In this document: positions 3,874 through 41,275 of the stretch, piece by piece
Position numbering within the stretch: position 1 is the stretch's first letter
Layout: every line of letters starts with the position of its first letter
Source: a bacterium
GTDB lineage: Bacteria; Synergistota; GBS-1
Length of the DNA: 48,674 nt
Assembly (NCBI GenBank): GCA_030153785.1
Contig: JASKLF010000011.1
Span: forward strand, 1 to 48,674
Reading direction: 5' to 3'
Translations under genes and position numbers: made by a program
The notes under the pieces: model-generated
The model's database searches: none
Told to the model about the DNA's origin: nothing
The model's input: the letters and a program-made list of their open reading frames with translations, nothing else

Positions 3874-5027
3874 AAAAGATTCTTTTCCTTATTCCCGTAT
3901 TAAAAGATGGTTCGGGGATATTTCTAACCGAGCTTGCCAAAGGATTAAAAAATTTGGGTTGGGATATATCTCTGGCTTCAGCTCCGGAAAGCGGTGACTG
4001 GGTTGAATGGAAGAACCTTAGGGAAGAGTTTGAGAGGATAGCTTCATCTATTTATGAGGTGGACTTCTTTAACAGGTCCTCTCAGGCCTTTTGGGGCAAT
4101 GTGGATAAACTCTTGCAGGTGTTAAGAAATGAGGGCTTCGGTATATTAGCTCCTCAGTCTTGCGTTCCCGCGTCAGCATGTTTAATATGTAAAGACCTAC
4201 TGTTGCTAAATACGCCTGTGGTATTAACTTTACACAGTTGGGGAACTGATAGGGCTTATTGGATGGACCTGTGGGATACTTGGGCTTTAAGCCGTGTCGA
4301 CCATGTGTGTTTTGTCTCGGAAGGTTATAGAGATGCTCTCTTAAGGAGGCTTTCCTTCAAGCTTGATTTAGGTAAGACTTCTGTGATTAAACCTGGCCTT
4401 CACATCGTAGATGATTATCCACATAAGGAGAGGCTAAAGGAAACTTTTGGCTTAAAGCTCAATGTTCCTGTGAATTCCTTTTGGATTACCACCCTTGGTG
4501 GAATATCGGAAAGGAAGGGACACCTCGAGCTTATAAGGGCCTTTAGGAGATTAATTGAAATGGGGAAGGATGCTTATCTTTTCTTTATAGGCCCCGTTAG
4601 GGAAATGGACTACTTTAGAGAAATGCTTACCGTTTTTAAAGAGATTCATCATAGGGTTAAGTTTATGGGATACATGAAAGACCCATACCCCTTGGTTAAG
4701 GCTTCTGACTTATTCCTTTTCCCCAGTAAGAGCGAGGGGCTTGGCTTGGCCTTGATGGAAGCCATGGCTTTAGGAGTTCCGTGTATATCTTCAGATATCG
4801 AGGGAACCAAGGATTTGGTTTGTAATGGCAGGTACGCTTTAGCTCTGGAAGAGTTAAACGAAAAGGAAATATTGGAGGCTTTAATCTATGCTCTTGAAAA
4901 TTATGAGGAGTTGGTGTATATTTCTAGTATAGCTAAGGAGAGGGTTTTAAGAGAGTTTAGCTTTGCGAGGACCGTTGAACTTTATGATATGCTCTACAAA
5001 AAATTTTTAAAAGCTTCCTTAAGTTGA
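3870..5027 (+). CDS. Glycosyltransferase family 4
   Basis: GT-B signature ERKGH and PSKSEGLGLALMEAMALGVP (EX7E). Confidence 0.9.
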   Translation: MKKILFLIPVLKDGSGIFLTELAKGLKNLGWDISLASAPESGDWVEWKNLREEFERIASSIYEVDFFNRSSQAFWGNVDKLLQVLRNEGFGILAPQSCVPASACLICKDLLLLNTPVVLTLHSWGTDRAYWMDLWDTWALSRVDHVCFVSEGYRDALLRRLSFKLDLGKTSVIKPGLHIVDDYPHKERLKETFGLKLNVPVNSFWITTLGGISERKGHLELIRAFRRLIEMGKDAYLFFIGPVREMDYFREMLTVFKEIHHRVKFMGYMKDPYPLVKASDLFLFPSKSEGLGLALMEAMALGVPCISSDIEGTKDLVCNGRYALALEELNEKEILEALIYALENYEELVYISSIAKERVLREFSFARTVELYDMLYKKFLKASLS

Positions 5028-5052: not shown

Positions 5053-5207
5053 GAGAGGAGGTGGTGTAACCACAGGAAGGTGAAGGAGAGAGATTGATGG
5101 TATGCTTTTTGCAAGGATGCGTTAACTTTTAGAGCCAACGGAAGGCTCGGCGCCTTAGGCACGGATGCTTAAGGCGTAAAAGTGATTAACCAAGGAGGGT
5201 GAGGTTC
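5053..5207 (+). promoter_or_regulatory. Flagellin 5' leader with multiple CsrA-type (ANGGA-in-loop) hairpins
   Basis: GC-AAGGAT-GC (5111-5120), GAGCC-AACGGAA-GGCTC (5132-5148), CGCCTTAGGC-ACGGAT-GCTTAAGGCG (5151-5176), SD AAGGAGG (5192-5198). Confidence 0.75.
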
Positions 5208-7574
5208 ATGATAGTTAATCATAATATCTCCGCGTTGAATGCTTATCGTAATTTGACTATTACGCAATCTGGCTTATCTAAATCTCTGGAGCGCCTTTCC
5301 TCAGGTTTGAGAATTAACCGTGCTGCTGATGACGCCGCAGGACTTGCTATTTCTGAAAAGATGAGAACCCAGATAAACGGTTTGGCTCAGGCTATAAGGA
5401 ACGCTCAGGATGGTATCTCTCTCATTCAAACTGCTGAGGGAGCGATGGATGAAGTCCATGCTATTCTTCAAAGAATGAGGGAACTTGCCAACCAGGCTGC
5501 AAACGATACTTACACTGCCTATGACCGTCAGCAAATACAAAAGGAGATAGATCAGCTTAAGGCTGAGGTAGACAGGATTGCTGAAACCACGCAGTTTAAC
5601 ACGAAGAAGCTTTTGACAGGGGAACTTTCTTACACCTTGAACAAGGTAAGAGGAGATGCTGAAGTAACCAACATGACGGCGGATAGTCGCGTTGAAGCGG
5701 GTAAATACCAGGTTGCTATATATCAGGCTGCCGATGTGGCCAAGCTCGTTGGTGGGACCGCCTTTGATTCAAGTGGCGATACAAGTACAGTTCTTCACAC
5801 GGGAGATGTTTACATTAACGGTGTTGCCGTTCACTTTGATTCTGATGAGTTTAATGCTGCTTCCGATAAGCTTCAATATATCATTGACAAGATTAACGCA
5901 GTGAGGGCTCAGACTAATGTGGAAGCACGTAAGGTGCAAGATCCCTACAACTCCAATATTTATCATCTTCAGCTTGTTCAGCTTGATGTGGGGACTTCCA
6001 ATGTGATTCAGCTTTCTGGAGATGACCAGACTTTGAAAGACCTTGGTTTTGGTATGAGAATGGGTGCTGTGGGAAGTGATATAGCTCTTACAAACGATGT
6101 GATAAGTGTAACTGGTTCGCTCTTTATAAACAACGTGTATGTGGGTCAAGTTGCTGCTACTGACACTATCCAGGACGTAGTTGCGATGATAAATAACGCG
6201 GCGGATGAAACAGGTGTTATGGCTGAAGCTGTTCAAGTAAGTATTAGTAGCGATGGAGCGACAAGGGCTTGGAATTTAAGATTAATTGAGGCAACGCCTG
6301 GAAGAGGAATAGATTTAAGCTATACTACCACGTCCCTTGCTACCGCGCTTGGTTTTGACATCGCTACTAACGGTCCAGATCTTTTGGACGGTTCTTTTAC
6401 CCTTATAAGAAGAGGCGGGGATTCCAACGAGAGATGGCTCGAAGGGGCTGAAGATATAACCACAAGTCTATTTAGCAGTAGTTTCCAGAACGGTGATCGA
6501 ATAAGAATAAATGGCGTTTGGATTACCTTGAGAGATGATAGTATAGGTTTGAATTTGCAATCCCTCGTTTCCGTTGCTGCGAGAATTAATACCTTCTCTG
6601 ATGTCACGGGTGTTAGGGCGGAGGTTGTTACAACTGGTGCTGGAGATGATGAAGAAGCCCGCTTGAGGCTTTACCAGATCACGCCCGATCCTAATAATAA
6701 GATCATTCTTTATTCTGATGTTTCGCAGGACAACTACAAGCTTAATCTCAGCACAGGAGCTGCCACCGCCAACACATCTAATGCTCTTTCAAATATTGGG
6801 TTTGACTATAATCATGCAAATGGCATTCTTGACTCTACCGTGGTTGGTGCTCGTGCAACAACTGGTGTCAATGTGAAGGTTAGGGTTTACTCCACAGACG
6901 ATGCTGGCAATCACGTGGCCATTTTCCATGACAAAGCCCTTATAATAGAAGGAGAGGGTTACCTGGTTAAACTTGACAAGAAGGAAATAGATAGCAAGAT
7001 TTACACGCCCTTGAATTACGATTATACCAAGAGAGGCATAGGGTTGAGCTTCGAGATTAAGGGAAGCAATAACCCGTGGGCAACCGCTAAGACCTTCTCC
7101 TATGTGGATCCATCTTACGGAGATACCGCGGTTAACGTTTATCTCTGGGGTAGTGCCGCCGAGATAAGGGTTAATACTGACAAAAGTCTTTTCCTTCACA
7201 TCGGTGCTAACGAAGGCGAAACCATGAGAATAGACATAGACTCATTAAGCACCGATGGGCTTGGGATTGCCGAGATCGATGTTACAACTCAGGAGGGAGC
7301 AGAGCTTGCTTTAACGACCCTTAGTGAGGCCATAAATAAGGTTTCTGATCAGCGTGCCAAGCTTGGTGCTTTCCAGAATAGGTTAGAGCACACCATAAGG
7401 AATTTAAGCGTGGCTCAGGAGAACACCCAAGCTGCGGAATCCAGAATTAGAGATGTAGATATGGCTCAGGAAATGATGCAGTTTACGAAGCTTCAGATAC
7501 TCTTGCAGTCTGGCACTGCAATGCTTGCTCAGGCAAACATGTTACCACAGAATGTGCTTCAGCTCTTGAGATAA
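5208..7574 (+). CDS. fliC: Flagellin, 788 aa, with large hypervariable region
   Basis: N-term [10 protein letters not shown]...[28 protein letters not shown]-term [14 protein letters not shown]...[14 protein letters not shown]...[11 protein letters not shown] 5208 matches the conserved flagellin start. Confidence 0.97.
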
Positions 7575-7655: not shown

Positions 7656-8021
7656 ATGAGAATTGAGGATGTAAACCCGGGTTTGGAATATAAAGTGAGC
7701 CACGTAGTCGAGAAGGAGGCGCATCAAGAGAGGGCTTTACAGGAACCTTTAAAGAGGATTCAAGAGGAACAGAAAAAGGCTGCACGGGGAGAGCTTGATA
7801 AAGAGGAGCTAAAAGATATATTGAATAAGTTCAACAGGTTTTTGGACGCCTTTAATATTCAGCTTAAGTTTAAGCTTCATGAGGAAACGAAAACCTGGAT
7901 AGTAAGGGTGGTCGATGTAGAAAATGATAGGGTAATAAGGGAAATCCCGCCAGAGAAGATACTTGACATGTTCGCCAAGATGATGGAGTTAATGGGTATA
8001 ATCTTTGATGAGAGAGTTTAA
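7656..8021 (+). CDS. flaG: Flagellar protein FlaG
   Basis: LKFKLHEET...VRVVD...VIREIPPEKILD...GIIFDERV; located between flagellin and fliD. Confidence 0.93.
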   Translation: MRIEDVNPGLEYKVSHVVEKEAHQERALQEPLKRIQEEQKKAARGELDKEELKDILNKFNRFLDAFNIQLKFKLHEETKTWIVRVVDVENDRVIREIPPEKILDMFAKMMELMGIIFDERV

Positions 8022-8044
8022 TAAAGTTTTCCCCTTTCCGATAT
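8018..8044 (+). promoter_or_regulatory. Sigma28 promoter of fliD operon
   Basis: TTAA (8018-8021), N15, TCCGATAT (8037-8044); same boxes as the flagellin promoter, followed by a GGAGGTGA SD. Confidence 0.85.
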
Positions 8045-8064: not shown

Positions 8065-10407
8065 ATGGCATCAACCCCTTCCATTCAGTTTGGTGGTTTG
8101 GTATCGGGGTTGGACACCTCTTCCATAATAGAACAACTTATGGAAGTGGAAAGACAGCCCTTAAACAGGCTGGAGGAAAGGATAAATTATCTCACTTGGA
8201 AGAAGGAGGCTCTTCTTGAGGTAAATAATTCTTTGTTGTCTTTGTATAACTCTGTTAGTGACCTTACTTTTTCTATCACCTTCACCTCCCGGACTGTTGA
8301 AACTACAGATGAAGATGTTGTAACTGGTAGAGCTACTAATTATGCTTCTCCCGGGAGTTACGAAATTGAGGTTCTCCAACTTGCTTATGGTGAAAGATTA
8401 AGTGGTAGTGTCTTTTCTGATACCAGCGCTCCTATAGGGACGGGTTCCGGGTTGGGAAGTTATACTTTTTATGTCAATGGCGTTTCTATTACAGTTAGCG
8501 ATGCTTATACTTTGGATGAAGTTAAAGAAGCGATTAATTCTGTTTCGGACCAGACTAATGTAAGGGCTTACATTCTTGGTGGAAGGCTTATATTAGAAAG
8601 TACCGAGACGGGGTCTTCTGCTACTATAGCTTTGACCGATTCTGCTGACCTTTCGGGTGGAACTGGTCCAAGTGAAGTTTTGGAATCTTTGGGTATATTG
8701 ACCGACACTAAGGAAAAGGCTAATGTTCTTCAGCAGGCTCAAGATGCCCTCTTTGAGGTTAACGGTGTTAGTATCACCTCTTCCACCAATACCGTTGAAA
8801 ACGAATTGGAAGAGGTAACCCTTTATCTTCAGGGAGTGGGGACTGCGAGAATAACTGTCGGCTATGATGTTGATAGGGCAGTTGAGGCTATGAATAACTT
8901 TGTTAACCAGTATAACGAAACTATTGATCTTTTGAATAGATACCTTTCAGAGGAAGTAGTTATAGATCCTCAGACAGAAGAGGAGCAAAGGCAAGGAATT
9001 TTAAGAGAGGAAACGAGTTTAAGATTGCTATTTTATAGGTTAAGAGACGAGATAACAAGAAGAGTTCCTGGAATAGAAGGATTGGAGATAGCGAGCCAAG
9101 TTGGGCTTTCAACGGGAGCGTGGACTATAGGAGAAGAGGCAATAGAGCAGGCTAAGACAGGGCATCTTGAGTTTGATGAAGAAGTCTTTAGAGAAGCTAT
9201 GGAAAGCGATCCGTTGAAGGTTTATAGGCTTTTTGCTGCTGAGGGACAGTATATAGAATCTGAGAGCCTGACAGAGTATAAGGTGGGAAGCCCCATAGGC
9301 TTATGGCATTTCGATGAAAGGCTTGGTAACGCTTCTTACGATTACTCCGGTAATGGACTTGATGCTCAGGTTGTAGGAGCTACCAGGGTCTTGGATGGCG
9401 GAAATTATGCCTTATCCTTCAATGGCGTTTCGGACTACGTCAGCATAGCTTCGAACTCGCTCCTCGATATGACCGATTCCGTTACTCTTGAGGCATGGAT
9501 TAAGCCTGCAAGTATAGGTGGTCTTCAGACCATTCTTGCCAAAGGGGATGATACGGGAACCAACTATGGTTTGCGTCTCAACGGGAGTGAGATCGAATTT
9601 TTCTATACCGACTCTGGGGGAGCGGAACATATCTATAGGACTTCTCTTGCAAGTATAGCAAGCGGAAATTGGTATCACGTTGGTGTAACTTTTTCCTTTG
9701 GAGAGGGCGATTCTATAAATATAGTTGTGAACAACAGTTCTGTTTCAGGTAGCTGGGTGGTAGGTGATGGAAGTGGTCTGGCTCAAGTTAATTCTTCTAG
9801 CTTAACCATTGGCTTGGCCAATAACTATTCAGATAAGAATCCCTTTAATGGTATAATAGATGAGGTGGCAATTTATGGCTCTGCTTTAAACTCCTCTCAG
9901 ATCGCGGAAAGATATTCCGCTTCAAGGAGAACGGTTTACTATCTTAGCTCGACGCCAGTTTCTATGGAACAGCCACCGGTTTTGAAGGTTAACGGTACAA
10001 GCTATACCCTTGTGGCTGGTATTCCTGAGAGCGGAGAGTTCAGTTTGGACTACACGACGGGTAAGATTTTGCTGGGAAATGCGCCTGCTTTGGGGGCAAG
10101 TGTGAGCGCGAGTTACGTGGGAGACGCGGAAAACGAGGATTACTGGGGAATAGCTCGGAGATTAAAGGAGATTCTTTATGATTATACAAGATGGGGAGGA
10201 ATAATCCTCTCTACAGCAGGAACCGGCGGAACCATAGATCAGCAGCTTAATCGGCTTGAAAAAGAGAAAGCGGACCTTGAGGCGAGATTAGCTGAGAAGG
10301 AAAGCTTTTTGTGGAATAAGTTCGTGGCCCTTGAGGAGGCTTTAAGCAATTTGCAGAGCCAAAGCAATTGGCTTACGGCTTATTTGGCAAATCTGGCTGG
10401 TTCATAA
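8065..10407 (+). CDS. fliD: Flagellar filament cap FliD with inserted LamG-like and beta-rich domains (780 aa)
   Basis: N-term FGGLVSGLDTSSIIEQLMEVERQP, QAQDA/SSTNTV, FVNQYNE, C-term KFVALEEALSNLQSQSNWL; ~290-aa insertion at aa ~395-684. Confidence 0.93.
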   Translation: MASTPSIQFGGLVSGLDTSSIIEQLMEVERQPLNRLEERINYLTWKKEALLEVNNSLLSLYNSVSDLTFSITFTSRTVETTDEDVVTGRATNYASPGSYEIEVLQLAYGERLSGSVFSDTSAPIGTGSGLGSYTFYVNGVSITVSDAYTLDEVKEAINSVSDQTNVRAYILGGRLILESTETGSSATIALTDSADLSGGTGPSEVLESLGILTDTKEKANVLQQAQDALFEVNGVSITSSTNTVENELEEVTLYLQGVGTARITVGYDVDRAVEAMNNFVNQYNETIDLLNRYLSEEVVIDPQTEEEQRQGILREETSLRLLFYRLRDEITRRVPGIEGLEIASQVGLSTGAWTIGEEAIEQAKTGHLEFDEEVFREAMESDPLKVYRLFAAEGQYIESESLTEYKVGSPIGLWHFDERLGNASYDYSGNGLDAQVVGATRVLDGGNYALSFNGVSDYVSIASNSLLDMTDSVTLEAWIKPASIGGLQTILAKGDDTGTNYGLRLNGSEIEFFYTDSGGAEHIYRTSLASIASGNWYHVGVTFSFGEGDSINIVVNNSSVSGSWVVGDGSGLAQVNSSSLTIGLANNYSDKNPFNGIIDEVAIYGSALNSSQIAERYSASRRTVYYLSSTPVSMEQPPVLKVNGTSYTLVAGIPESGEFSLDYTTGKILLGNAPALGASVSASYVGDAENEDYWGIARRLKEILYDYTRWGGIILSTAGTGGTIDQQLNRLEKEKADLEARLAEKESFLWNKFVALEEALSNLQSQSNWLTAYLANLAGS

Positions 10408-10429: not shown

Positions 10430-11035
10430 ATGGTAAAGGTTTTTGTTGATGAGGAAGAGCGGGTTGACCTTGAGGACATGGAAGTGAGCGAGGTTGTGTC
10501 CAGGGTAGAAGAAGAATTAAAAAGGGACGGCAAGGTGATCATGCGAGTTGAGCTTGATGGACAGCCTTTAGGGGAAAGGAAGCTCGAAGAGATCGATTTA
10601 AGGGGGGTTAGGGAGATAGCTTTTTTTAGTAAGAGCGTGAGCGAGCTTGTGAAAGAATCGTTGGCGGACCTTCAAGTTTATCTTCCCCGACTTTCGGGTG
10701 GCTTAAAAGATATCGCCTCTTTATTTAGGCTTGGCGAGTTTAAGAAGGCTTTGGGACTTCTTCCTAAGGCAGTGGAGGGGGTTGGCTGGCTCATAAAGGT
10801 TTTCGAGTACACGGCCTTGCTTTTAGGGGTCGAATGGAAAACGTTAAAGGATGTGGATTTTGAAAGGGAAAGAGATGCTGTCGTTTCTAAACTTGGGGAG
10901 GTTTCCAAGGCGCTTGAAGATAGGGATTTTATAAGACTCTCAGACCTTTTAGCTTACGAGGTAGCTCCTGTAATTGAGGGTTGGGAGAAGATAGCTGATT
11001 ACCTTTTATCTTTAGCTCAGCAAGTGCGTCATTAG
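10430..11035 (+). CDS. Helical hypothetical protein of flagellar/glycosylation locus
   Basis: 201-aa ORF with strong AGGAGG SD. C-terminal ALEDRDFIRLSDLLAYEV resembles uncharacterised proteins recalled from flagellin glycosylation loci. Confidence 0.7.
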   Translation: MVKVFVDEEERVDLEDMEVSEVVSRVEEELKRDGKVIMRVELDGQPLGERKLEEIDLRGVREIAFFSKSVSELVKESLADLQVYLPRLSGGLKDIASLFRLGEFKKALGLLPKAVEGVGWLIKVFEYTALLLGVEWKTLKDVDFERERDAVVSKLGEVSKALEDRDFIRLSDLLAYEVAPVIEGWEKIADYLLSLAQQVRH

Positions 11036-11040
11036 TGGGT

Positions 11041-11634
11041 ATGGTTAAAGCGGCCTTTATAGACAGGGATGGAACTGTTCTTGATAACATGGGATACCTT
11101 AACCATCCTGCACGAGTGAGGCTCCTTCCGGGCGTAGCTTGTGGTATAAGGCTTCTTAGGGAAGCAGGCTGGAAGATTGTAGTTATCACAAACCAGGGTG
11201 GCATAGAAAGAGGATATTATACCCATGATGTTTTGCACATTATAAACTTACGGATGCTTGAGCTTCTATGGGCGGAGGGTGCTCTTATAGATGCCTTGTA
11301 TTATTCCCCTTTTGTGAGTGAGTCTCCCTGTAAAAAGCCTAACACTGGGATGATAGAGAGAGCGGTGAGAGAGCTCGGCATAGATTTGAGGTCTTCCTTT
11401 GTGGTTGGAGATCAGCTTATAGACTTGGAGCTTGCGAGGCGAGCAGGATGCCCATCTATACTTGTTTTAACGGGCTTTGGTTTGGGCTTTTACGAATACA
11501 TGCGTGACAAAGTGGAAGAGTTATCCCCCATATTTATAGGAGAGGACCTGTTAGAGGTTGCTGAATGGGTGGTGAACGGTGAAGGTTCTTATTACCTCGG
11601 CCTCAAGAAAGGTGGTGTTGGTAAGGAGCTTTAA
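11041..11634 (+). CDS. GmhB-like HAD phosphatase (heptose-bisphosphate phosphatase family)
   Basis: DRDGT, VITNQGGI, KKPNTGM, VGDQLID motifs. Confidence 0.85.
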   Translation: MVKAAFIDRDGTVLDNMGYLNHPARVRLLPGVACGIRLLREAGWKIVVITNQGGIERGYYTHDVLHIINLRMLELLWAEGALIDALYYSPFVSESPCKKPNTGMIERAVRELGIDLRSSFVVGDQLIDLELARRAGCPSILVLTGFGLGFYEYMRDKVEELSPIFIGEDLLEVAEWVVNGEGSYYLGLKKGGVGKEL

Positions 11635-12523
11635 ACGGTACGCAACCGTTTATGTTACCGATATAGACCCTCTCTCTCCGGCCATTTACATGGCCGATTT
11701 TTTTTATAAAGCCCCTTTTACTCTATCTCCTGAATTTTCTGATTTTATACTCGATCTCGTAGATAGAGAGGAAATTAATATGGTTGTTCCGACAACTGAC
11801 GATGACCTTACAGTGGTTGCTTCCTTAAGGGAACAGCTTATCGAAAGGGGAGTTTTCCCTTTAGTCTCTTCTTTGGAAGTAGTTTCGATCTGTAATGACA
11901 AGATTAAAACCTATGGCTTCTTTAAGAAGAATGGTATTCCTACCCCGGAGACCTTCCCTGTCGAGGAGATAAAAGGGAAGGGTCCCCTTCCTTTTAAGGC
12001 GGTATTTAAAAAGAGATTTGGCAGAGGTAGTAGAGGGCTCTTTTACCTTAATGAGGGTGACCTTCCTTCCGAAAATATAGGTGAGGACTATATCGTTCAG
12101 CGTTACATAGAGGGAAAGGAGTTTACGATAGACTCTTTTGTTGATTCAAGGGGGAATGTAATTTCCGTGGTTCCAAGGGAAAGGATTTTGGTAAGTGACG
12201 GCGTTTCCGTTCGAGGGAGGACGGTAAAGTCGGAAGAGCTTATCATGTGGGGCAGGAATATTTGTGAACTTCTTAGACCTTTGGGGCCCGTTAATATCCA
12301 GTGTATCTGGGGGAAGGAAGGAATTTTTTTCACCGAGATTAACCCTCGTTTTTCAGGGGGAATAGCTTTGACCTTGGCTGCTGGAGCGGACTTCATTAAA
12401 TGGAGTATAGACCTGGCTTATGGAAGAGAAATAACCCCCTTGCCCGATTTTGAGGAGCTTTATATGAGCTGTTATAATGAGCCGATTTTTTTTAAGCTTC
12501 CCATGGAGGGGAAAAAGTTTTGA
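11579..12523 (+). CDS. ATP-grasp domain ligase (carbamoyl-phosphate-synthase-like, glycan-cluster type)
   Basis: CNDKIKT, GRGSRG, VQRYIEGKEFTID, TEINPRFSGG; overlaps the upstream gene by 56 nt. Confidence 0.85.
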   Translation: MKVLITSASRKVVLVRSFKRYATVYVTDIDPLSPAIYMADFFYKAPFTLSPEFSDFILDLVDREEINMVVPTTDDDLTVVASLREQLIERGVFPLVSSLEVVSICNDKIKTYGFFKKNGIPTPETFPVEEIKGKGPLPFKAVFKKRFGRGSRGLFYLNEGDLPSENIGEDYIVQRYIEGKEFTIDSFVDSRGNVISVVPRERILVSDGVSVRGRTVKSEELIMWGRNICELLRPLGPVNIQCIWGKEGIFFTEINPRFSGGIALTLAAGADFIKWSIDLAYGREITPLPDFEELYMSCYNEPIFFKLPMEGKKF

Positions 12524-13275
12524 GAATACTGGGGTTAATTCAAGCTAGGATGGGGTCTAAAAGATTGCCTGGCAAAGTCCTTGCAGAGCTTGATGGAAGG
12601 CCTCTCATTTTTGCCCTGCTTGATAGGTTGAGATGGTCAAAAAGGGTAGATTCTTTCGTTGTTGCTACTACAGTGCTTCCTGAAGATGACGCTTTGGTTG
12701 AGGTTTTAAGGGGCAAGGGATTTCAGGTGTTTAGAGGACATCCAATAGATGTCCTTGATAGGTTTTATAAAGCTGCTTCCCTGTTGGAGGCTAACTATAT
12801 TGTTAGGATTACCGCCGATAATCCTCTTACCGATCCCGGGCTTATGGATGAGGCAGTTATGACTGCTTTGGTTAAAAGAGCTGACTATGTGAGCTTTGTT
12901 AACCTACCCCTTGGGGTGTATCCCGAGGTAGTATCTTTTAAAGCTCTTGAGAGAGCCTACAAGGAGGCTAAGGCTCCCTATCAGAGAGAGCATGTGACCC
13001 CCTATATAAATGAAAGTCCCGATAAATTTAACCTGATTTTTCTTGAAACAGATCTTGGATTAGGATGTGATGGTCTCAGATTAACGGTGGATTATCCTGA
13101 GGACCTTGAGCTTATGAGAATCGTATTTAAAGAGATGATGAAGAAAAGGGGAAGGTGGGGTATAAAGGAAGTGTTGGAGTTTTTGAGATCTAACTCTGGG
13201 CTATTGCTTTTAAATAGGCATCTTTCTCAGAAGAGCAAGTTTGAGGTGGACGAAGGGTGGGGTAGAGATGGTTAA
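12520..13275 (+). CDS. SpsF-like cytidylyltransferase (CMP-nonulosonate synthetase family)
   Basis: IQARMGSKRLPGKVL, DVLDRF, RITADNP, REHVTPYI, RLTVDYPED. Confidence 0.9.
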   Translation: MRILGLIQARMGSKRLPGKVLAELDGRPLIFALLDRLRWSKRVDSFVVATTVLPEDDALVEVLRGKGFQVFRGHPIDVLDRFYKAASLLEANYIVRITADNPLTDPGLMDEAVMTALVKRADYVSFVNLPLGVYPEVVSFKALERAYKEAKAPYQREHVTPYINESPDKFNLIFLETDLGLGCDGLRLTVDYPEDLELMRIVFKEMMKKRGRWGIKEVLEFLRSNSGLLLLNRHLSQKSKFEVDEGWGRDG

Positions 13276-14269
13276 GGTTGGAAGAAAGTTTGTGGGAGTG
13301 GGAGCTCCTTGTTTCGTCATTGCTGAGGCGGGAATAAATCACAACGGGGATGTAAATCTGGCTAAAGAGCTTATAAGACAAGCTGCTAAGAATGGGGCCG
13401 ATGCTGTTAAGTTTCAGTTATTTCACGCGGAAAATCTTGTTGAGGAAGGAACCCCTGAGTTTGAGATGTTCAAGAAATGCGAGTTACCAAAGGATGCGTG
13501 GAAGGAATTAGCCCTTCTTGCGGAAAGAGAGGGGATAACTTTTATGGCCACACCTTTCGATCTTGAGGCCGTTAGTTTGCTGGAGGAACTTGGGACTCCT
13601 GCTTATAAGATAGCTTCTGGTGACATTACCAATTATGAGCTTATAAGCAATGTTGCGAGAAAGTGGAAACCCGTTTTTTTGTCTACAGGTGGGGCTACTC
13701 TTGAGGAAATCAGGCTGGCTGTGGATTGTATATACGGCGAGGAAAACGACAGAATCATACTCCTACATTGCGTTTCATGCTATCCTGCCCCTCTCGAAAG
13801 CTTAAACTTGAAAGCTATTGATGATTTATGGGAGCATTTTCGCATTCCCGTTGGTTTTTCTGATCATAGTATAGGGATCGATGCGGCTTTGGTAGCTGTA
13901 TCAATGGGAGCTGTGGCTATAGAAAAGCATTTTACGATAGATAAATCCTTGCCAGGGCCAGATCACCATCATTCCTTAATCCCCGATGAGCTTTCCGAGA
14001 TGGTTAAAAAGATAAGAAAGATTGAGAAGATGTTCGGAAGCGGGAGGAAGGAGCCGATGCCTTGTGAGTCTGAGGTAAGAGTTAAGGGAAGAAGAGGGAT
14101 TAAGGCAGCCGTTGATATTCCTAAAGGGACGCCTATAGAGAGGAGGATGTTAGCTCTTGTTAGGCCCAAGAGGGGAATAGGAGTGGAGGACCTTCAGAAT
14201 GTTTTGGGTAAGAAGGTAGCAAGAGATATCAGGAGAGGGGAGGACCTTCGTTGGGAGGACTTAATATAA
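13268..14269 (+). CDS. NeuB/PseI/SpsE-family nonulosonic acid synthase with C-terminal SAF domain
   Basis: IAEAGINHNGD, DAVKFQ, YKIASGD, LHCVSCYP, GFSDHS, IEKHFT, GPDH. ATG 13268 chosen over GTG 13241. Confidence 0.93.
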   Translation: MVKVGRKFVGVGAPCFVIAEAGINHNGDVNLAKELIRQAAKNGADAVKFQLFHAENLVEEGTPEFEMFKKCELPKDAWKELALLAEREGITFMATPFDLEAVSLLEELGTPAYKIASGDITNYELISNVARKWKPVFLSTGGATLEEIRLAVDCIYGEENDRIILLHCVSCYPAPLESLNLKAIDDLWEHFRIPVGFSDHSIGIDAALVAVSMGAVAIEKHFTIDKSLPGPDHHHSLIPDELSEMVKKIRKIEKMFGSGRKEPMPCESEVRVKGRRGIKAAVDIPKGTPIERRMLALVRPKRGIGVEDLQNVLGKKVARDIRRGEDLRWEDLI

Positions 14270-15411
14270 AGGGGGTTCCCTTTTTCAAACCTTCTATAAG
14301 AGATGAGGAGATAGAAGGGGTAACCGAGGTCTTAAAGAGTGGATGGCTTACGAAGGGAAAGGTAACGGAGGAATTTGAGAAAGAGTGTATGAAATTTCTT
14401 TCGGCTTCAGCGTGCCTTGCTGTTTCCTCGGGAACCGCGGGTCTTCATCTTGCCCTGTTGGGCTTAGGTTTAAGGCCGGGCGATGAGGTTATAACAACTT
14501 CCCTGACCCATGTTGCCACGGTTCAGTCAATACTCTATGTGGGAGCTAAACCTGTTTTTGCAGACATAGAACCTGAGACGATGAACATCTCTCCTGATGA
14601 GGTGCTGAAAAAGGTTACTCCGAAAACGAAGGCTATCCTTCCCGTTCACTTTGCGGGACATCCCTGCGATATGGATGCTCTTCGAGAGATAGCCCAGAAG
14701 TATGGGTTATCCATAGTTGAAGATGCTGCTCATGCCTTTGGTGCTTCCTATAAGGGAAAGCCCTTGGGAAGTAACGGCTTTGGGGATATAACCGTTTTTA
14801 GCTTTTACCCTAACAAACCTATAACGACTGGAGAGGGAGGCTTAATATGCGGAGAGAAGGAGAGAATAGATAAAATTAGAGTATTGTCTCATCACGGTAT
14901 TGTTTACCCTTCCCGTGGACGCTTATGGAGATACGATGCTGTGGAGCTCGGTTATAAGTATAACTTTACGGATATCCAAGCTGCCATCGGTTTAGCTCAG
15001 CTTCGTAAATCCGAAAAGCTGTTGTTAAGAAGAAAAAGGATATTTGAGCGGTATAATGAAGCTTTTAAACATGAAGAGGCCTTGATAACACCTGTTATAA
15101 AAGATTACGCCTCTCCTTCCTATTATATATATCCTCTAAGACTTAACTTAAGGGCCTTAAAGTGCTCTCGAGATGAGTTTGCCTTCGCTCTTGAGCAGGA
15201 AGGAGTGGGTATTAGTGTTCATTATTCTCCTCCTGTCCATCTCCATTCTTACTATCGCAGGACCCTTGGTTTAAGAGAAGGCGACCTACCCGTGACAGAG
15301 GAGGCTTCAAGAAGCGAGCTTAGTCTTCCCCTTTATCCTGACATGAGAGACGAGGAAATCGATTTTGTAGTTGAGAGAGTGTTTAAACTTATTAAGTCAT
15401 TTAAGAGGTGA
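14251..15411 (+). CDS. DegT/DnrJ/EryC1/StrS sugar aminotransferase (PseC/SpsC-like)
   Basis: SSGTAGLHLAL, VEDAAHAFG, FSFYPNKPITTGEGG (PLP Lys), LSLPLYP. Confidence 0.93.
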   Translation: MGGLNIKGVPFFKPSIRDEEIEGVTEVLKSGWLTKGKVTEEFEKECMKFLSASACLAVSSGTAGLHLALLGLGLRPGDEVITTSLTHVATVQSILYVGAKPVFADIEPETMNISPDEVLKKVTPKTKAILPVHFAGHPCDMDALREIAQKYGLSIVEDAAHAFGASYKGKPLGSNGFGDITVFSFYPNKPITTGEGGLICGEKERIDKIRVLSHHGIVYPSRGRLWRYDAVELGYKYNFTDIQAAIGLAQLRKSEKLLLRRKRIFERYNEAFKHEEALITPVIKDYASPSYYIYPLRLNLRALKCSRDEFAFALEQEGVGISVHYSPPVHLHSYYRRTLGLREGDLPVTEEASRSELSLPLYPDMRDEEIDFVVERVFKLIKSFKR

Positions 15412-16397
15412 AGGGTTTGTCTCTCCAAGAGAAGATAGAGAGAATATTGAAAAATCAAAATCTCTCTATAGGTCTTCCTAGCTATACAATTCGGGGAAGG
15501 TGGTGGTTTAAGCCCTTTGACCATTTGGATTTTTGGGATTTAGGGTTTTTCATTGGACTACTTCTTAAGTTTGATGAATTTAAAGCTGTGGGGCTTAAGC
15601 TTCTGGAGATGCTTGAGGAAAGGATATACCCTTTAAATCATAATCTGGGTTTTTTATTTTATAGCTCTTTCGTTCCGGCCTATCTTGAAACGGGTTCTAA
15701 TAAGTTAAAACACAGAATAAAGGCTGAGGCTGAAAGGATGGCTTCCCTCTTTAATGAAGAGCTTGGATTCATACCGATGGATGGTCCCGGCGGGGATAGT
15801 ATAGCGATTGATACTTTGGCTTCTCTTGAGTTTCTTTGGTGGGCCTCAAGAGAGTATGGTTCTTTTAAGTTTTCGGATATTGCCATGAGACATGCTTTGA
15901 GTTCTTTGAAGTTCCTTTTGCGCCAAGATGGCTCAACCTTTCATATATGTTCTCTGAGTAAAGGACCCATAAGAGGTCAGGGATTAAGTTCCTTAAGTTG
16001 TTGGTCAAGGGGAGCTGCATGGGGCGCATTGGGTTTCTTGAGAGCGTATGAGGAGACGAAGGAGAACCTTTTTAAGGAAGCTTGTGAAAGGATACTTCGG
16101 TTTGCGATGAGTAATGTAAATGAAGATGGCGTTCCCCCTTGGGATTTTTGCGACAAGGATGGACCCAAGGACACTTCAGCTGGTGCGATATTTTTAAAGG
16201 TTCTTTCTTCCTTTAATGGAGATTTCTCGCTTTGGAGGGAGTCTCTTCACAGAAGCCTTTCCATCAAGTATGTTGCCAAGGAGGAAAATTGGGAAGGTTT
16301 TCTTAAAGGGGGGTGTTATCATTACCACTGGAAGAAGGGAATAGATGAAAGCTTAATTTGGGGAGATTTCTTTGCGTTAGATGTCTTGGAATTGTGA
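15408..16397 (+). CDS. Glycoside hydrolase family 88-like (unsaturated glucuronyl hydrolase fold) protein
   Basis: HNLGF, AIDTL, LLRQDGSTFH, QG..S.SCWSRGAAW, DTSAGAI, ESLIWGDFF. Confidence 0.8.
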   Translation: MKGLSLQEKIERILKNQNLSIGLPSYTIRGRWWFKPFDHLDFWDLGFFIGLLLKFDEFKAVGLKLLEMLEERIYPLNHNLGFLFYSSFVPAYLETGSNKLKHRIKAEAERMASLFNEELGFIPMDGPGGDSIAIDTLASLEFLWWASREYGSFKFSDIAMRHALSSLKFLLRQDGSTFHICSLSKGPIRGQGLSSLSCWSRGAAWGALGFLRAYEETKENLFKEACERILRFAMSNVNEDGVPPWDFCDKDGPKDTSAGAIFLKVLSSFNGDFSLWRESLHRSLSIKYVAKEENWEGFLKGGCYHYHWKKGIDESLIWGDFFALDVLEL

Positions 16398-39458: not shown

Positions 39459-41275
39459 TTGGTAGCTGAGGCAAAAGTTTTGCGGGTTAATCTAAGTGAG
39501 AAGAGCGTGAGGGTCGATGTCTATGGTGAGGACGTAGTTAAGCAGTATGTAGGGGGTAGGGGGCTTGCAGCCTATATAATGGCTAAAGAAGTGGATGCGA
39601 AGGTAGATCCTCTCTCTCCCGATAATAAGCTTATTTTCGCTCCTGGTCCTCTTTCCGGAACAAGCGCTCCTACTGGAGGCAGGTATAATGTGGTAACGAA
39701 GAGTCCCCTTACAGGCTTTATTGCTTTCACGAATTCTGGTGGATATTTTGGAGCGGAGCTTAGGCAAGCTGGTTGGGATTTGTTGGTGGTGGAGGGCAAG
39801 GCAGAAAAGCCTGTATATATTTATATCAATGGAGATAACGTTGAGATTAGAGATGCTTCTCATGTCTGGGGCAAATTAGTTAGTGAAACAGAAGATACTT
39901 TGCGAAAGGAAGTTGGAGTTGACAGGGCAAGAATTGCTTGTATAGGTCCTGCGGGTGAGAATTTATCTTTAATCGCAGCGGTTATGAACGATAAAGCAAG
40001 AGCTGCTGGAAGGTGCGGTGTTGGAGCTGTAATGGGTAGTAAAAACCTTAAGGCGGTAGTGGTTGTGGGAAGCAAGGGTGCTCCTACACCGGCGGATAGA
40101 GAAAAATTCATGCAGGTTGTTAGAGAAAAGGTAAACAAGCTACGTAACGACCCTGTTGCAGGTGGAGGGGCTCCTAAATACGGAACCGCTGTGCTGGTAA
40201 ATATCATAAATGAGAATGGGCTGTATCCCCATAGAAACTTCCAGACAAGCGTTTTTGCTCATGCTTATGACCAGAGCGGTGAAGCTATGGCGGCAAAATA
40301 TCTGGTCAGAAACAAACCTTGTTTTGCTTGCCCGATAGGATGTGCGAGGGTTAACAAGCTGTTCTATCTTAAGGAGGAAGTAGAGGGACCTGAATACGAA
40401 ACCGTTTGGGCTTTTGGTTCTGATTTGGGTATAAACGACTTACACACGATAATTTTAGCTAATCACCTGTGCAACGAATTAGGGTTTGATACCATATCGG
40501 CGGGAACCACTTGGCCTGTGCCATGGAGTTGTTTGAGAAAGGTTATATAAAGCCTGAAGAGTTGGGCGATGAGCCTCCATTGAGATTTGGAAATACGGAA
40601 GTCCCTATATACTACTTGCCTAAGATGGCTTTTCGTCAGGGCTTTGGCGCTAAAATGGCAGATGGGAGTTATAGGCTTGCTGAAAGCTATGGTCACCCGG
40701 AGCTTTCTATGAGTGCTAAGAAGTTGGAGCTCCCCGCTTATGACCCGAGAGTTGCCCAGGGTCTTGGACTTCAATATGCTACCTGTAACAGAGGTGGAGA
40801 TCATATTAAGGGATACATGATTAGCCCTGAGATATTGGGTTACCCGAGGAAGTTTGATCCTCAGGACGACTCGGAAGGTAAGATTGAGATGGTTAAAGAG
40901 TTTCAGGAGACCACTGCTCTCGTAGATGCGATGGGTTTGTGTATCTTTACCATGTTTGGCCTATGGATCGAGGATTACAAGGATCTTTTGAACGCCTTCT
41001 TTGGTTGGGACCTGTCCGTTGAAGATTGCCTTAGGATAGGAGAGAGGATTTGGAATTTAGAAAGAGCCTTTAATATTAAGGCTGGGCTTACGAAGGCTGA
41101 TGATACTTTACCAAAGAGACTTTTAGAAGAAGCTGTGCCAGAGGGTCCTCACAAGGGTAGCGTTTGTAGGTTAGAAAAAACTCTTCCCGTTTACTATAAA
41201 TTGCGTGGCTGGAACGAGGACGGCACTATACCTGAATCGAAGCTTTCGGAGCTGGGGTTGGAGTGGTATAAGTAA
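39459..41275 (+). pseudogene. aor: Tungsten-type aldehyde:ferredoxin oxidoreductase split by a single-base frameshift near 40510 (pseudogene or assembly error)
   Basis: ORFs 39459-40550 and 40511-41275 join into one AOR: TKSPLTG, GAVMGSKNLKA, CFACPIGC, EGPEYE, DTISAGT/LACAMEL, LPAYDPR, YYKLRGW. Confidence 0.9.

Follow-up and report, generated by a model that had tools for sequence, protein, structure and literature searches.

A flagellar filament cap protein with a nested LamG-like domain: a candidate tip adhesin

The fliD locus

The window, ie the whole stretch of 48,674 nucleotides that was analysed, contains an open reading frame for the filament cap protein of the organism, FliD, in which a LamG domain is nested in a small beta-domain of the D1 leg. 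The features of the region are given in Table 1.

Table 1. Features of the fliD region in window coordinates
Feature	Position	Strand	Basis
Flagellin, large outer domains; sigma-28-like site at 5019 before the gene	5199..7574	+	
flaG	7656..8021	+	Gene context
Sigma-28-like promoter (candidate), directly upstream of fliD	8018..8044	+	One of 4 genome-wide pattern matches
fliD, flagellar filament cap, 780 aa (P0001)	8065..10407	+	Pfam, Foldseek, VIA
FliD D0/D1 N-terminal helices, D2-D3 head, D1 middle (aa 1-391)	8065..9237	+	Pfam and predicted secondary structure
First strand of host beta-domain (aa 392-408), DUF2460 / distal-tail-insertion type	9238..9288	+	Model strand E395-402; aligns with start of sister insert
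LamG / ConA-like jellyroll (aa 409-621), nested in host beta-domain	9289..9927	+	Pfam, AlphaFold2, fold search
Rest of host beta-domain (aa 622-690)	9928..10134	+	42% identity to sister FliD over 623-779; DUF2460 E=0.0017
FliD D1/D0 C-terminal helices (aa 691-780)	10135..10407	+	FliD_C model 152-235; helices 696-775 predicted
201-aa gene after fliD, DUF8042-like	10430..11035	+	Atlas score 0.94; TM 0.80-0.85 to DUF8042 clusters

Pfam searches of the translated protein matched FliD_N at aa 14-107 (88.6 bits, cut-off 24.8), Flagellin_IN at aa 134-180, and FliD_C with 135.9 bits (cut-off 25.4). The FliD_C match is in two pieces, aa 225-395 corresponding to positions 1-163 of the model and nucleotides 10096-10356 to positions 152-235. 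The whole protein was predicted by AlphaFold2 with a mean pLDDT of 88.7 and a pTM of 0.67, as a D0/D1 helical leg with a D2/D3 beta head. The best Foldseek matches of this model are FliD caps (9gsx, E=7e-23), and its Z score against E. coli FliD (5h5v) is 25.7 by VIA. The NCBIfam FliD equivalog cut-off was missed (best 175.7 bits, cut-off 444), which reflects distance and the insert and not the family, because these models are lineage-specific and cover the whole length. No second FliD_C locus was found by profile search of the genome, which is 95.7% complete. The protein would be exported via the flagellum and would then assemble as a pentamer like other caps.

The remainder of the flagellar apparatus is represented in the genome, with flhA, motAB, fliF/G/H/I/J/K/L/M/N/O/P, flgD/E/K/L/N, fliW, fliS and chemotaxis genes, ie export, motor, hook, junction and chemotaxis functions (the flagellar gene scan of six loci covered 73 of 87 ORFs). 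The sigma-28-like site before fliD resembles the sigma-28 consensus, and the search pattern was fixed after that site had been viewed; two of its other matches in the genome precede two long flagellin genes. CCGATA, the core of its -10 element, also lies upstream of fliD in genomes G002 and G003; G001 has a variant of it, and no intact copy was seen before the fliD of G005, a sister genome described below. The 201-aa gene that follows fliD has no Pfam or NCBIfam match and is syntenic in all four relatives checked. A NeuB / cytidylyltransferase / DegT cluster lies downstream of fliD in each of the four genomes of the window's family and suggests that the flagellin is glycosylated with nonulosonate. 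NeuB also occurs in both sister genomes, which are without LamG, and a tie between LamG and the nonulosonate genes was rejected on this ground.

The inserted domains and their nesting

Laminin_G_3 (PF13385) was matched at aa 454-614 of the full protein with E=8.3e-25 and 88.1 bits, against a cut-off of 27.6. The isolated domain scored 92.8 bits (cut-off 27.6) over positions 2-151 of the 151 in the model, and no other family was matched when it was scanned against Pfam at E up to 10. The FliD insert is the sole Laminin_G_3 match in the genome. Prediction of the insertion alone (aa 380-705) by AlphaFold2 gave a mean pLDDT of 86.3, and the predicted LamG domain has the two-sheet jellyroll fold. 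The initial annotation had described a 780-aa FliD with an inserted LamG-like jellyroll, at 9247-10116 (aa 395-684). The profile match above cut-off and the confident jellyroll in the monomer model bear this out, and all eight of the motifs named there were found, at aa 382-613. The insertion is 302 residues long, between A391 and W694, and not about 290 as first thought, and the limits of LamG, originally about 410-617, are mended to aa 409-621. What had been overlooked was a second beta-domain: LamG is not inserted directly into FliD, and the segments on either side of it (aa 392-408 and 622-690) are its host and not linkers.

The nearest FliD relative without LamG is the 565-aa protein of G005, from another family of the same phylum, and its gene is syntenic. 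Its identity to the window's FliD is 49% over aa 6-391 and 42% over aa 623-779, and the two aligned blocks are separated in it by no more than some 18 residues; its insert is 89 residues long. This small, unsplit domain matches DUF2460 with 42.4 bits (cut-off 30.4) and residues 96-178 of the RcGTA distal tail protein (6tba) with E=3.4e-5; a region search with it found no cluster besides its own. The C-terminal host part of the window's protein matches DUF2460 with E=0.0017 and 18.3 bits, ie under the cut-off of 30.4, and the search of the window's genome gave no DUF2460 match. In the alignment and the model, LamG (409-621) stands in place of the Gly-Asp-Gly loop of the host domain. The nesting has three levels, with LamG inside the small beta-domain and the latter inside D1 of FliD.

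In an alignment of 28 FliDs, inserts of very different kinds occur at this one position. It holds 302 aa in six proteins of the window's family, 89-95 aa in six others, 174 aa consisting of two DUF2460-like copies in P0189, and 155 aa in P0259, where an F5/8 type C (discoidin) domain is present in the same D1 loop. Fourteen of the 28 have only 3-27 aa there. By alignment the loop corresponds to about residues 377-383 of Salmonella FliD. The alignments to 9gsx end at the start of the insertion, residue 393 of P0119 being equivalent to 421 of 9gsx and residue 400 of P0001 to 425. Since they end there, and the paper on the C. jejuni structure places its domain D4 within the D1 bundle (PMC7316729), the loop is probably the D4 site. 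FliD length ranges from about 480 to more than 1800 aa across the phylum. The uniqueness of the design is lessened by the DUF2460-type or F5/8 type C domains that this loop holds in other bacteria.

A tree of the FliD core, calculated with the inserts excluded, places the LamG proteins in one clade (bootstrap 100) with the G005 type as sister (100); the remaining FliDs with a small domain branch outside both. This is a midpoint-rooted tree without a topology test. With one LamG clade and the other small-domain proteins outside it, the simplest account is that LamG was gained once. FliD is likely to have acquired the small domain first, and the family's ancestor would then have received LamG, in one insertion, at the Gly-Asp-Gly loop of that domain. 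In a quick tree of LamG domains (34 trimmed domains kept in the alignment, five FliD rows left out) the family clade had an SH-aLRT of 99 and its link to P0143/P0151 only 91, and for that reason the donor is left unnamed.

The source assembly consists of 14 contigs, and misjoins can yield nested domains, but an assembly chimera or gene-calling artefact is almost certainly not the explanation. The full fusion was present in all four genomes of the family (72-100% identity) with the same gene order around fliD, and a further copy in another genome record (L021) is 73% identical. A search with the insertion returned 117 proteins, in which FliD and LamG occurred together in eight clusters with 70-100% identity in the insert; the other 109 were without the FliD family. 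Single contigs bridge all four junctions in three of four runs (X7 record 9, X8 record 10, X9 record 14), the assembly of the fourth being in short pieces, and X8 and X9 come from studies without any row marked as a possible source. There is no step in GC across the insert. The clusters, the genomes and the bridging contigs refute a chimera. The strong holders of the sequence carry the habitat labels subsurface, oil production facility, shale gas, hydrocarbon and terrestrial metagenomes, and those runs that are labelled metatranscriptomic were flagged as probably DNA.

Within the phylum the fusion was found in this family only. Among 268 genomes of the phylum FliD_C was found in 163 and a LamG-profile match in 18; the 21 places with such a match include only four in FliD, all from the window's family. 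None of 267 collected proteins combined FliD and LamG outside the family (nine family entries have both), and no independent fusion was present in the best 150 of 81,224 representative matches (down to 232.7 bits, mostly multi-LamG proteins). A search for giant FliDs of 1401-4000 aa found 15, none with LamG, and FliD segments were found at none of 78 LamG-bearing genome loci. Two of 19 metagenome loci have LamG, both being close family members, and several of the others are incomplete. Neither the single-protein scan of genome contigs, which found nothing, nor an atlas search with the insertion, with leads below 0.9 only, added a case. The initial annotation knew of no described FliD-LamG fusion, and none was found in full-text literature searches, which covered listings, the starts of abstracts and few subscription papers. 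The main text of a survey of flagellin outer domains is without the words lectin, laminin or concanavalin (PMC11532411). Insertions in D1 and adhesion by FliD have been described before; LamG as the cargo, and its place inside a tail-type domain, seem to be new to the literature.

Conservation, fold relatives and possible function

Six pairwise comparisons among four genomes gave a dN of 0.16-0.24 for LamG and of 0.15-0.20 for the cap core, synonymous sites being either saturated or at a dS of about 2. Across eight proteins the mean pair identity was 0.76 in both LamG and D3, 0.65 in D2b and 0.64 in the host domain, and LamG had an identical length in all eight aligned family proteins. LamG is under purifying selection like the cap core, and such uniform conservation fits a fixed partner on the flagellum itself equally with an external ligand.

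Positions variable in the LamG family were defined across 897 outside LamG domains. In predicted concave-sheet segments 23 of 42 such positions were invariant in the eight family sequences, compared with 19 of 62 elsewhere (odds ratio 2.7, p=0.016; the segments were chosen after viewing and the sequences are related). The concave sheet was presumed to be formed by segments 487-526 and 581-592, following the usual topology of the fold; the faces on which residues lie, and the orientation of LamG, are likewise presumed. In the closest outside LamG, that of P0143 (identity 42-43%), 12 and 11 of the 14 residues selected are retained, and this suggests that the binding surface was inherited.

The best solved fold match of the LamG domain was domain 4 of AbnA (5HON), with Z 21.2-21.9 and an rmsd of 2.4-2.7 over 190-193 residues at 19-20% identity; the search with the inserted domain gave Z 21.5 and an rmsd of 2.5 over 191 residues. 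Further matches were to CBM40, with Z 17.9, and to PilC, a lectin of the pilus tip, with Z 14.7. The jellyrolls of the N-terminal binding region of clostridial neurotoxins and of NTNH were level with AbnA domain 4 (Z 20-21), and the pappalysin LamG was among the lower-ranked matches; we know of no established sugar binding in that domain for any of these. The fold-search lists for the insertion were taken up by LamG matches. CBM40 uses an arginine pair to clamp the carboxylate of sialic acid. Its profile was not matched by the LamG domain in Pfam at E up to 10, so that the likeness is one of fold only. The TafC family of fimbrial proteins (NF052521) was matched in the LamG region only and far under the cut-off (39.8 bits, cut-off 410). 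The domain has four Trp residues, of which W414, W478 and W536 are at family-wide structural positions.

FliD is known to serve in adhesion and even in signalling between species, and to our knowledge its binding sites are largely undefined. Reviews report that the FliD of P. thermopropionicum binds partner methanogens (PMC4429618), and that in other bacteria FliD mediates adhesion to mucin, with adhesin roles for some FliDs (PMC8306008). On balance we hold, with moderate confidence, that the LamG domain is a tip-displayed adhesin for an external ligand, probably a glycan, and that it is likely to sit on the flank of the cap. The host domain would be a flexible stalk that occupies the place of D4 in C. 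jejuni, and the five LamG domains of a cap would surround the flank of the tip as a mobile collar, away from the cavity in which flagellin folds. A polar and aromatic patch (R504, E509, E511, F513, H522, Y524 and N586-Y588), predicted on or beside the concave face, would bind surface glycans of the biofilm matrix or of neighbouring cells, and five copies would give avidity. A crown at the tip had been proposed initially; the conserved fusion stands, but the crown geometry is probably wrong, since the insertion lies in the D1 leg, and D4 in the C. jejuni leg is on the flank, between D3 and FlgL.

Counted in favour of an adhesin were the sole FliD_C locus and sole Laminin_G_3 match of the genome, its set of flagellar and chemotaxis genes, and the sigma-28-like site; the binding of arabinan by the nearest solved fold, with CBM40 and PilC also matched; the core-like dN, the invariance in the concave segments and the residues kept in P0143; and the F5/8 type C domain in the same loop of P0259, the heparin postulate for D4 and the P. 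thermopropionicum FliD. Counted against it were the neurotoxin and NTNH jellyrolls at the level of AbnA, the lack of an evident Trp cleft, and the missing CBM40 match. With a lectin-type domain that is well folded and separable, adhesion at the tip becomes open to direct testing, for which a single recombinant domain and a few point mutants would do.

The partner could instead be on the flagellum. LamG might act as a brace that binds the organism's flagellin, by its outer domains or their glycans, or else FlgL or the adjacent FliD subunit, and so stabilises the cap or tunes its movement. The even, core-like conservation is in keeping with this, as are the flagellin with its large outer domains and the nonulosonate cluster after fliD in the four family genomes. 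In C. jejuni, D4 is described as lying between D3 and a FlgL subunit, where it may limit movement of D3 (PMC12221982), but in the isolated cap it was too mobile for modelling, by the account in PMC7316729. We consider a brace possible, if somewhat unlikely. In the sister lineage fliD is syntenic and the flagellin similar (58% identical), yet LamG is absent, so that a cap can exist without the domain; the nonulosonate genes, as seen above, do not track with LamG, and the CBM40 profile is not matched. Prediction of a complex between the insertion (aa 391-691) and flagellin (aa 140-672) scored 0.00 in both runs, with the controls not folded, and the outcome is neutral.

A role as a shield against flagellotropic phage or proteases, or as a passenger, ie a tolerated insert kept only as its folding demands, is distinctly unlikely. 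Inserts of 89-302 residues that are unrelated to one another are tolerated in the loop, FliD length varies widely in the phylum, and both modules are frequent in phage proteins. An arms race, however, predicts variation, and LamG is as conserved as D3 and more so than D2b and the host domain. The invariance of surface-type positions that vary in the LamG family and the identical length of the domain argue against a shield and a passenger alike.

The preferred adhesin function may be extended to a picture that we regard as unlikely in its entirety: the D1 loop as a general plug-in socket, and the two-tier appendage of tail-type domain and LamG as a dedicated device by which the tip, with five-fold binding, captures one specific kind of partner cell, for instance through a methanogen surface glycan in oil-field or subsurface consortia. 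If true, it would provide a discrete, mutable domain for FliD-mediated partner recognition of the Pelotomaculum kind. Independently of this picture, the inserts at the loop form a graded series (none, one small domain, two copies, a small domain with LamG, discoidin), which documents flagellar tips gaining modules that are shared with phage tails, and the loop is a permissive site for display of a 300-residue cargo on the flagellar tip.

Comparison with known systems

Canonical FliDs (Salmonella 9GNZ, E. coli 5H5V, Pseudomonas 5FHY) share the D0-D3 fold and the fliC-flaG-fliD context with the window's protein, but have a short loop at the site and no dedicated binding domain. Native caps are described as pentamers in Salmonella and C. 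jejuni (PMC12221982). The FliD of C. jejuni (6SIH, 9GSX) resembles that of the window in having an extra globular domain in the D1 bundle, away from the cap cavity; this D4 has a postulated role in adhesion (PMC7316729, PMC12221982), and a link to heparin binding was postulated (PMC7316729). The window's insert differs in its length of 302 aa and its two tiers, and its cargo is not known to be homologous to D4. P0259 likewise bears a lectin-type module at this loop of D1, but with the F5/8 type C fold, on another branch of the FliD tree and with no DUF2460-type host detected by Pfam or profile.

Rcc01695, the distal tail protein of RcGTA (6TBA, DUF2460), has an insertion domain that is probably homologous to the FliD host domain, by way of the sister FliD (E=3.4e-5). 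This domain is borne on a phage-like tail, and in the window's family the corresponding domain is split by LamG; the RcGTA domain is described as flexible and possibly sugar-binding (PMC7296036).

Domain 4 of AbnA from Geobacillus stearothermophilus binds arabinan with a KD of about 8-11 uM and has many Trp residues on its concave face, according to PMC9110388. It is attached to an enzyme and lined with Trp, in contrast to the LamG of FliD, which has few, and for that reason the ligand of the latter is probably another one. A functional analogue is PilC, with a lectin module on a filament-tip subunit and a fold match of Z 14.7, although it is a pilin and not a flagellar cap, and is distant in sequence. 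Its lectin module is grafted C-terminally and not nested. As in the role proposed here for FliD, PilC is reported to bind glycans at the tip of the filament through its concave side (PMC9934059).

Genes downstream of fliD

The gene immediately downstream of fliD is conserved and encodes a DUF8042-like protein of 201 amino acids. By its location it might be a candidate FliD chaperone; fliS of the same genome lies on a different contig from both fliD and this gene. The run of genes from the HAD phosphatase to the 329-aa gene is found downstream of fliD in all four genomes of the family carrying the FliD-LamG fusion. The cluster is probably a nonulosonate pathway, with a predicted role in flagellin glycosylation. 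The window's genome also encodes a second long flagellin of 834 aa (L159:9342-11843) and has a minimal flagellin-like gene of 246 aa (L160:6147-6884) outside the flagellar clusters.

Coordinates of the fliD-associated and FliD-like genes
Feature	Location	Remarks
201-aa gene	window 10430-11035	conserved; DUF8042-like
HAD phosphatase, ATP-grasp, cytidylyltransferase, NeuB, DegT aminotransferase, unknown 329-aa gene	window 11035-16397	
Orphan FliD-like genes	L163:3542-4993, L164:3385-4785, L012:928-2376	FliD_C match, no FliD_N match
Giant FliDs	L104-L110; P0268-P0282	long open frames, inserts mostly unannotated

Sequence breaks and variants

A contig from sequencing run X8 carries a 21-base in-frame deletion at window position 9125 (about residue 354 of FliD), in a D1 loop ahead of the insertion where confidence in the predicted model is low. 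In a metagenome copy of the fusion (L165:3001-5341) the frame is broken in the middle region of D1, possibly by a sequencing error. The aldehyde ferredoxin oxidoreductase at 39459-41275 in the window is split into two overlapping reading frames (Pfam AFOR_C 2-135 and 136-385), which is a frameshift or assembly error.

Other FliD proteins and D1-loop cargo

The orphan FliD-like genes lie in G002, a relative, in G005, of the sister lineage lacking LamG, and in G007; the neighbours scanned, those in G002 and G005, are non-flagellar. No such orphan was found in the window's own genome. The giant FliDs have open frames of 1535-1850 aa within one Synergistota genus; elsewhere they reach 3697 aa.

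FliDs P0119, P0141, P0155, P0173, P0189 and P0243, and the one encoded at L100:7851-9545, carry at the D1 loop a domain of the DUF2460 (GTA distal-tail) type. The named members of this group belong to Eubacteriales and Candidatus Wallbacteria, the FliD of the latter carrying two such domains in tandem. The same loop holds an F5/8 type C (discoidin) domain (residues 570-704) in P0259, a FliD unrelated to that of the window.
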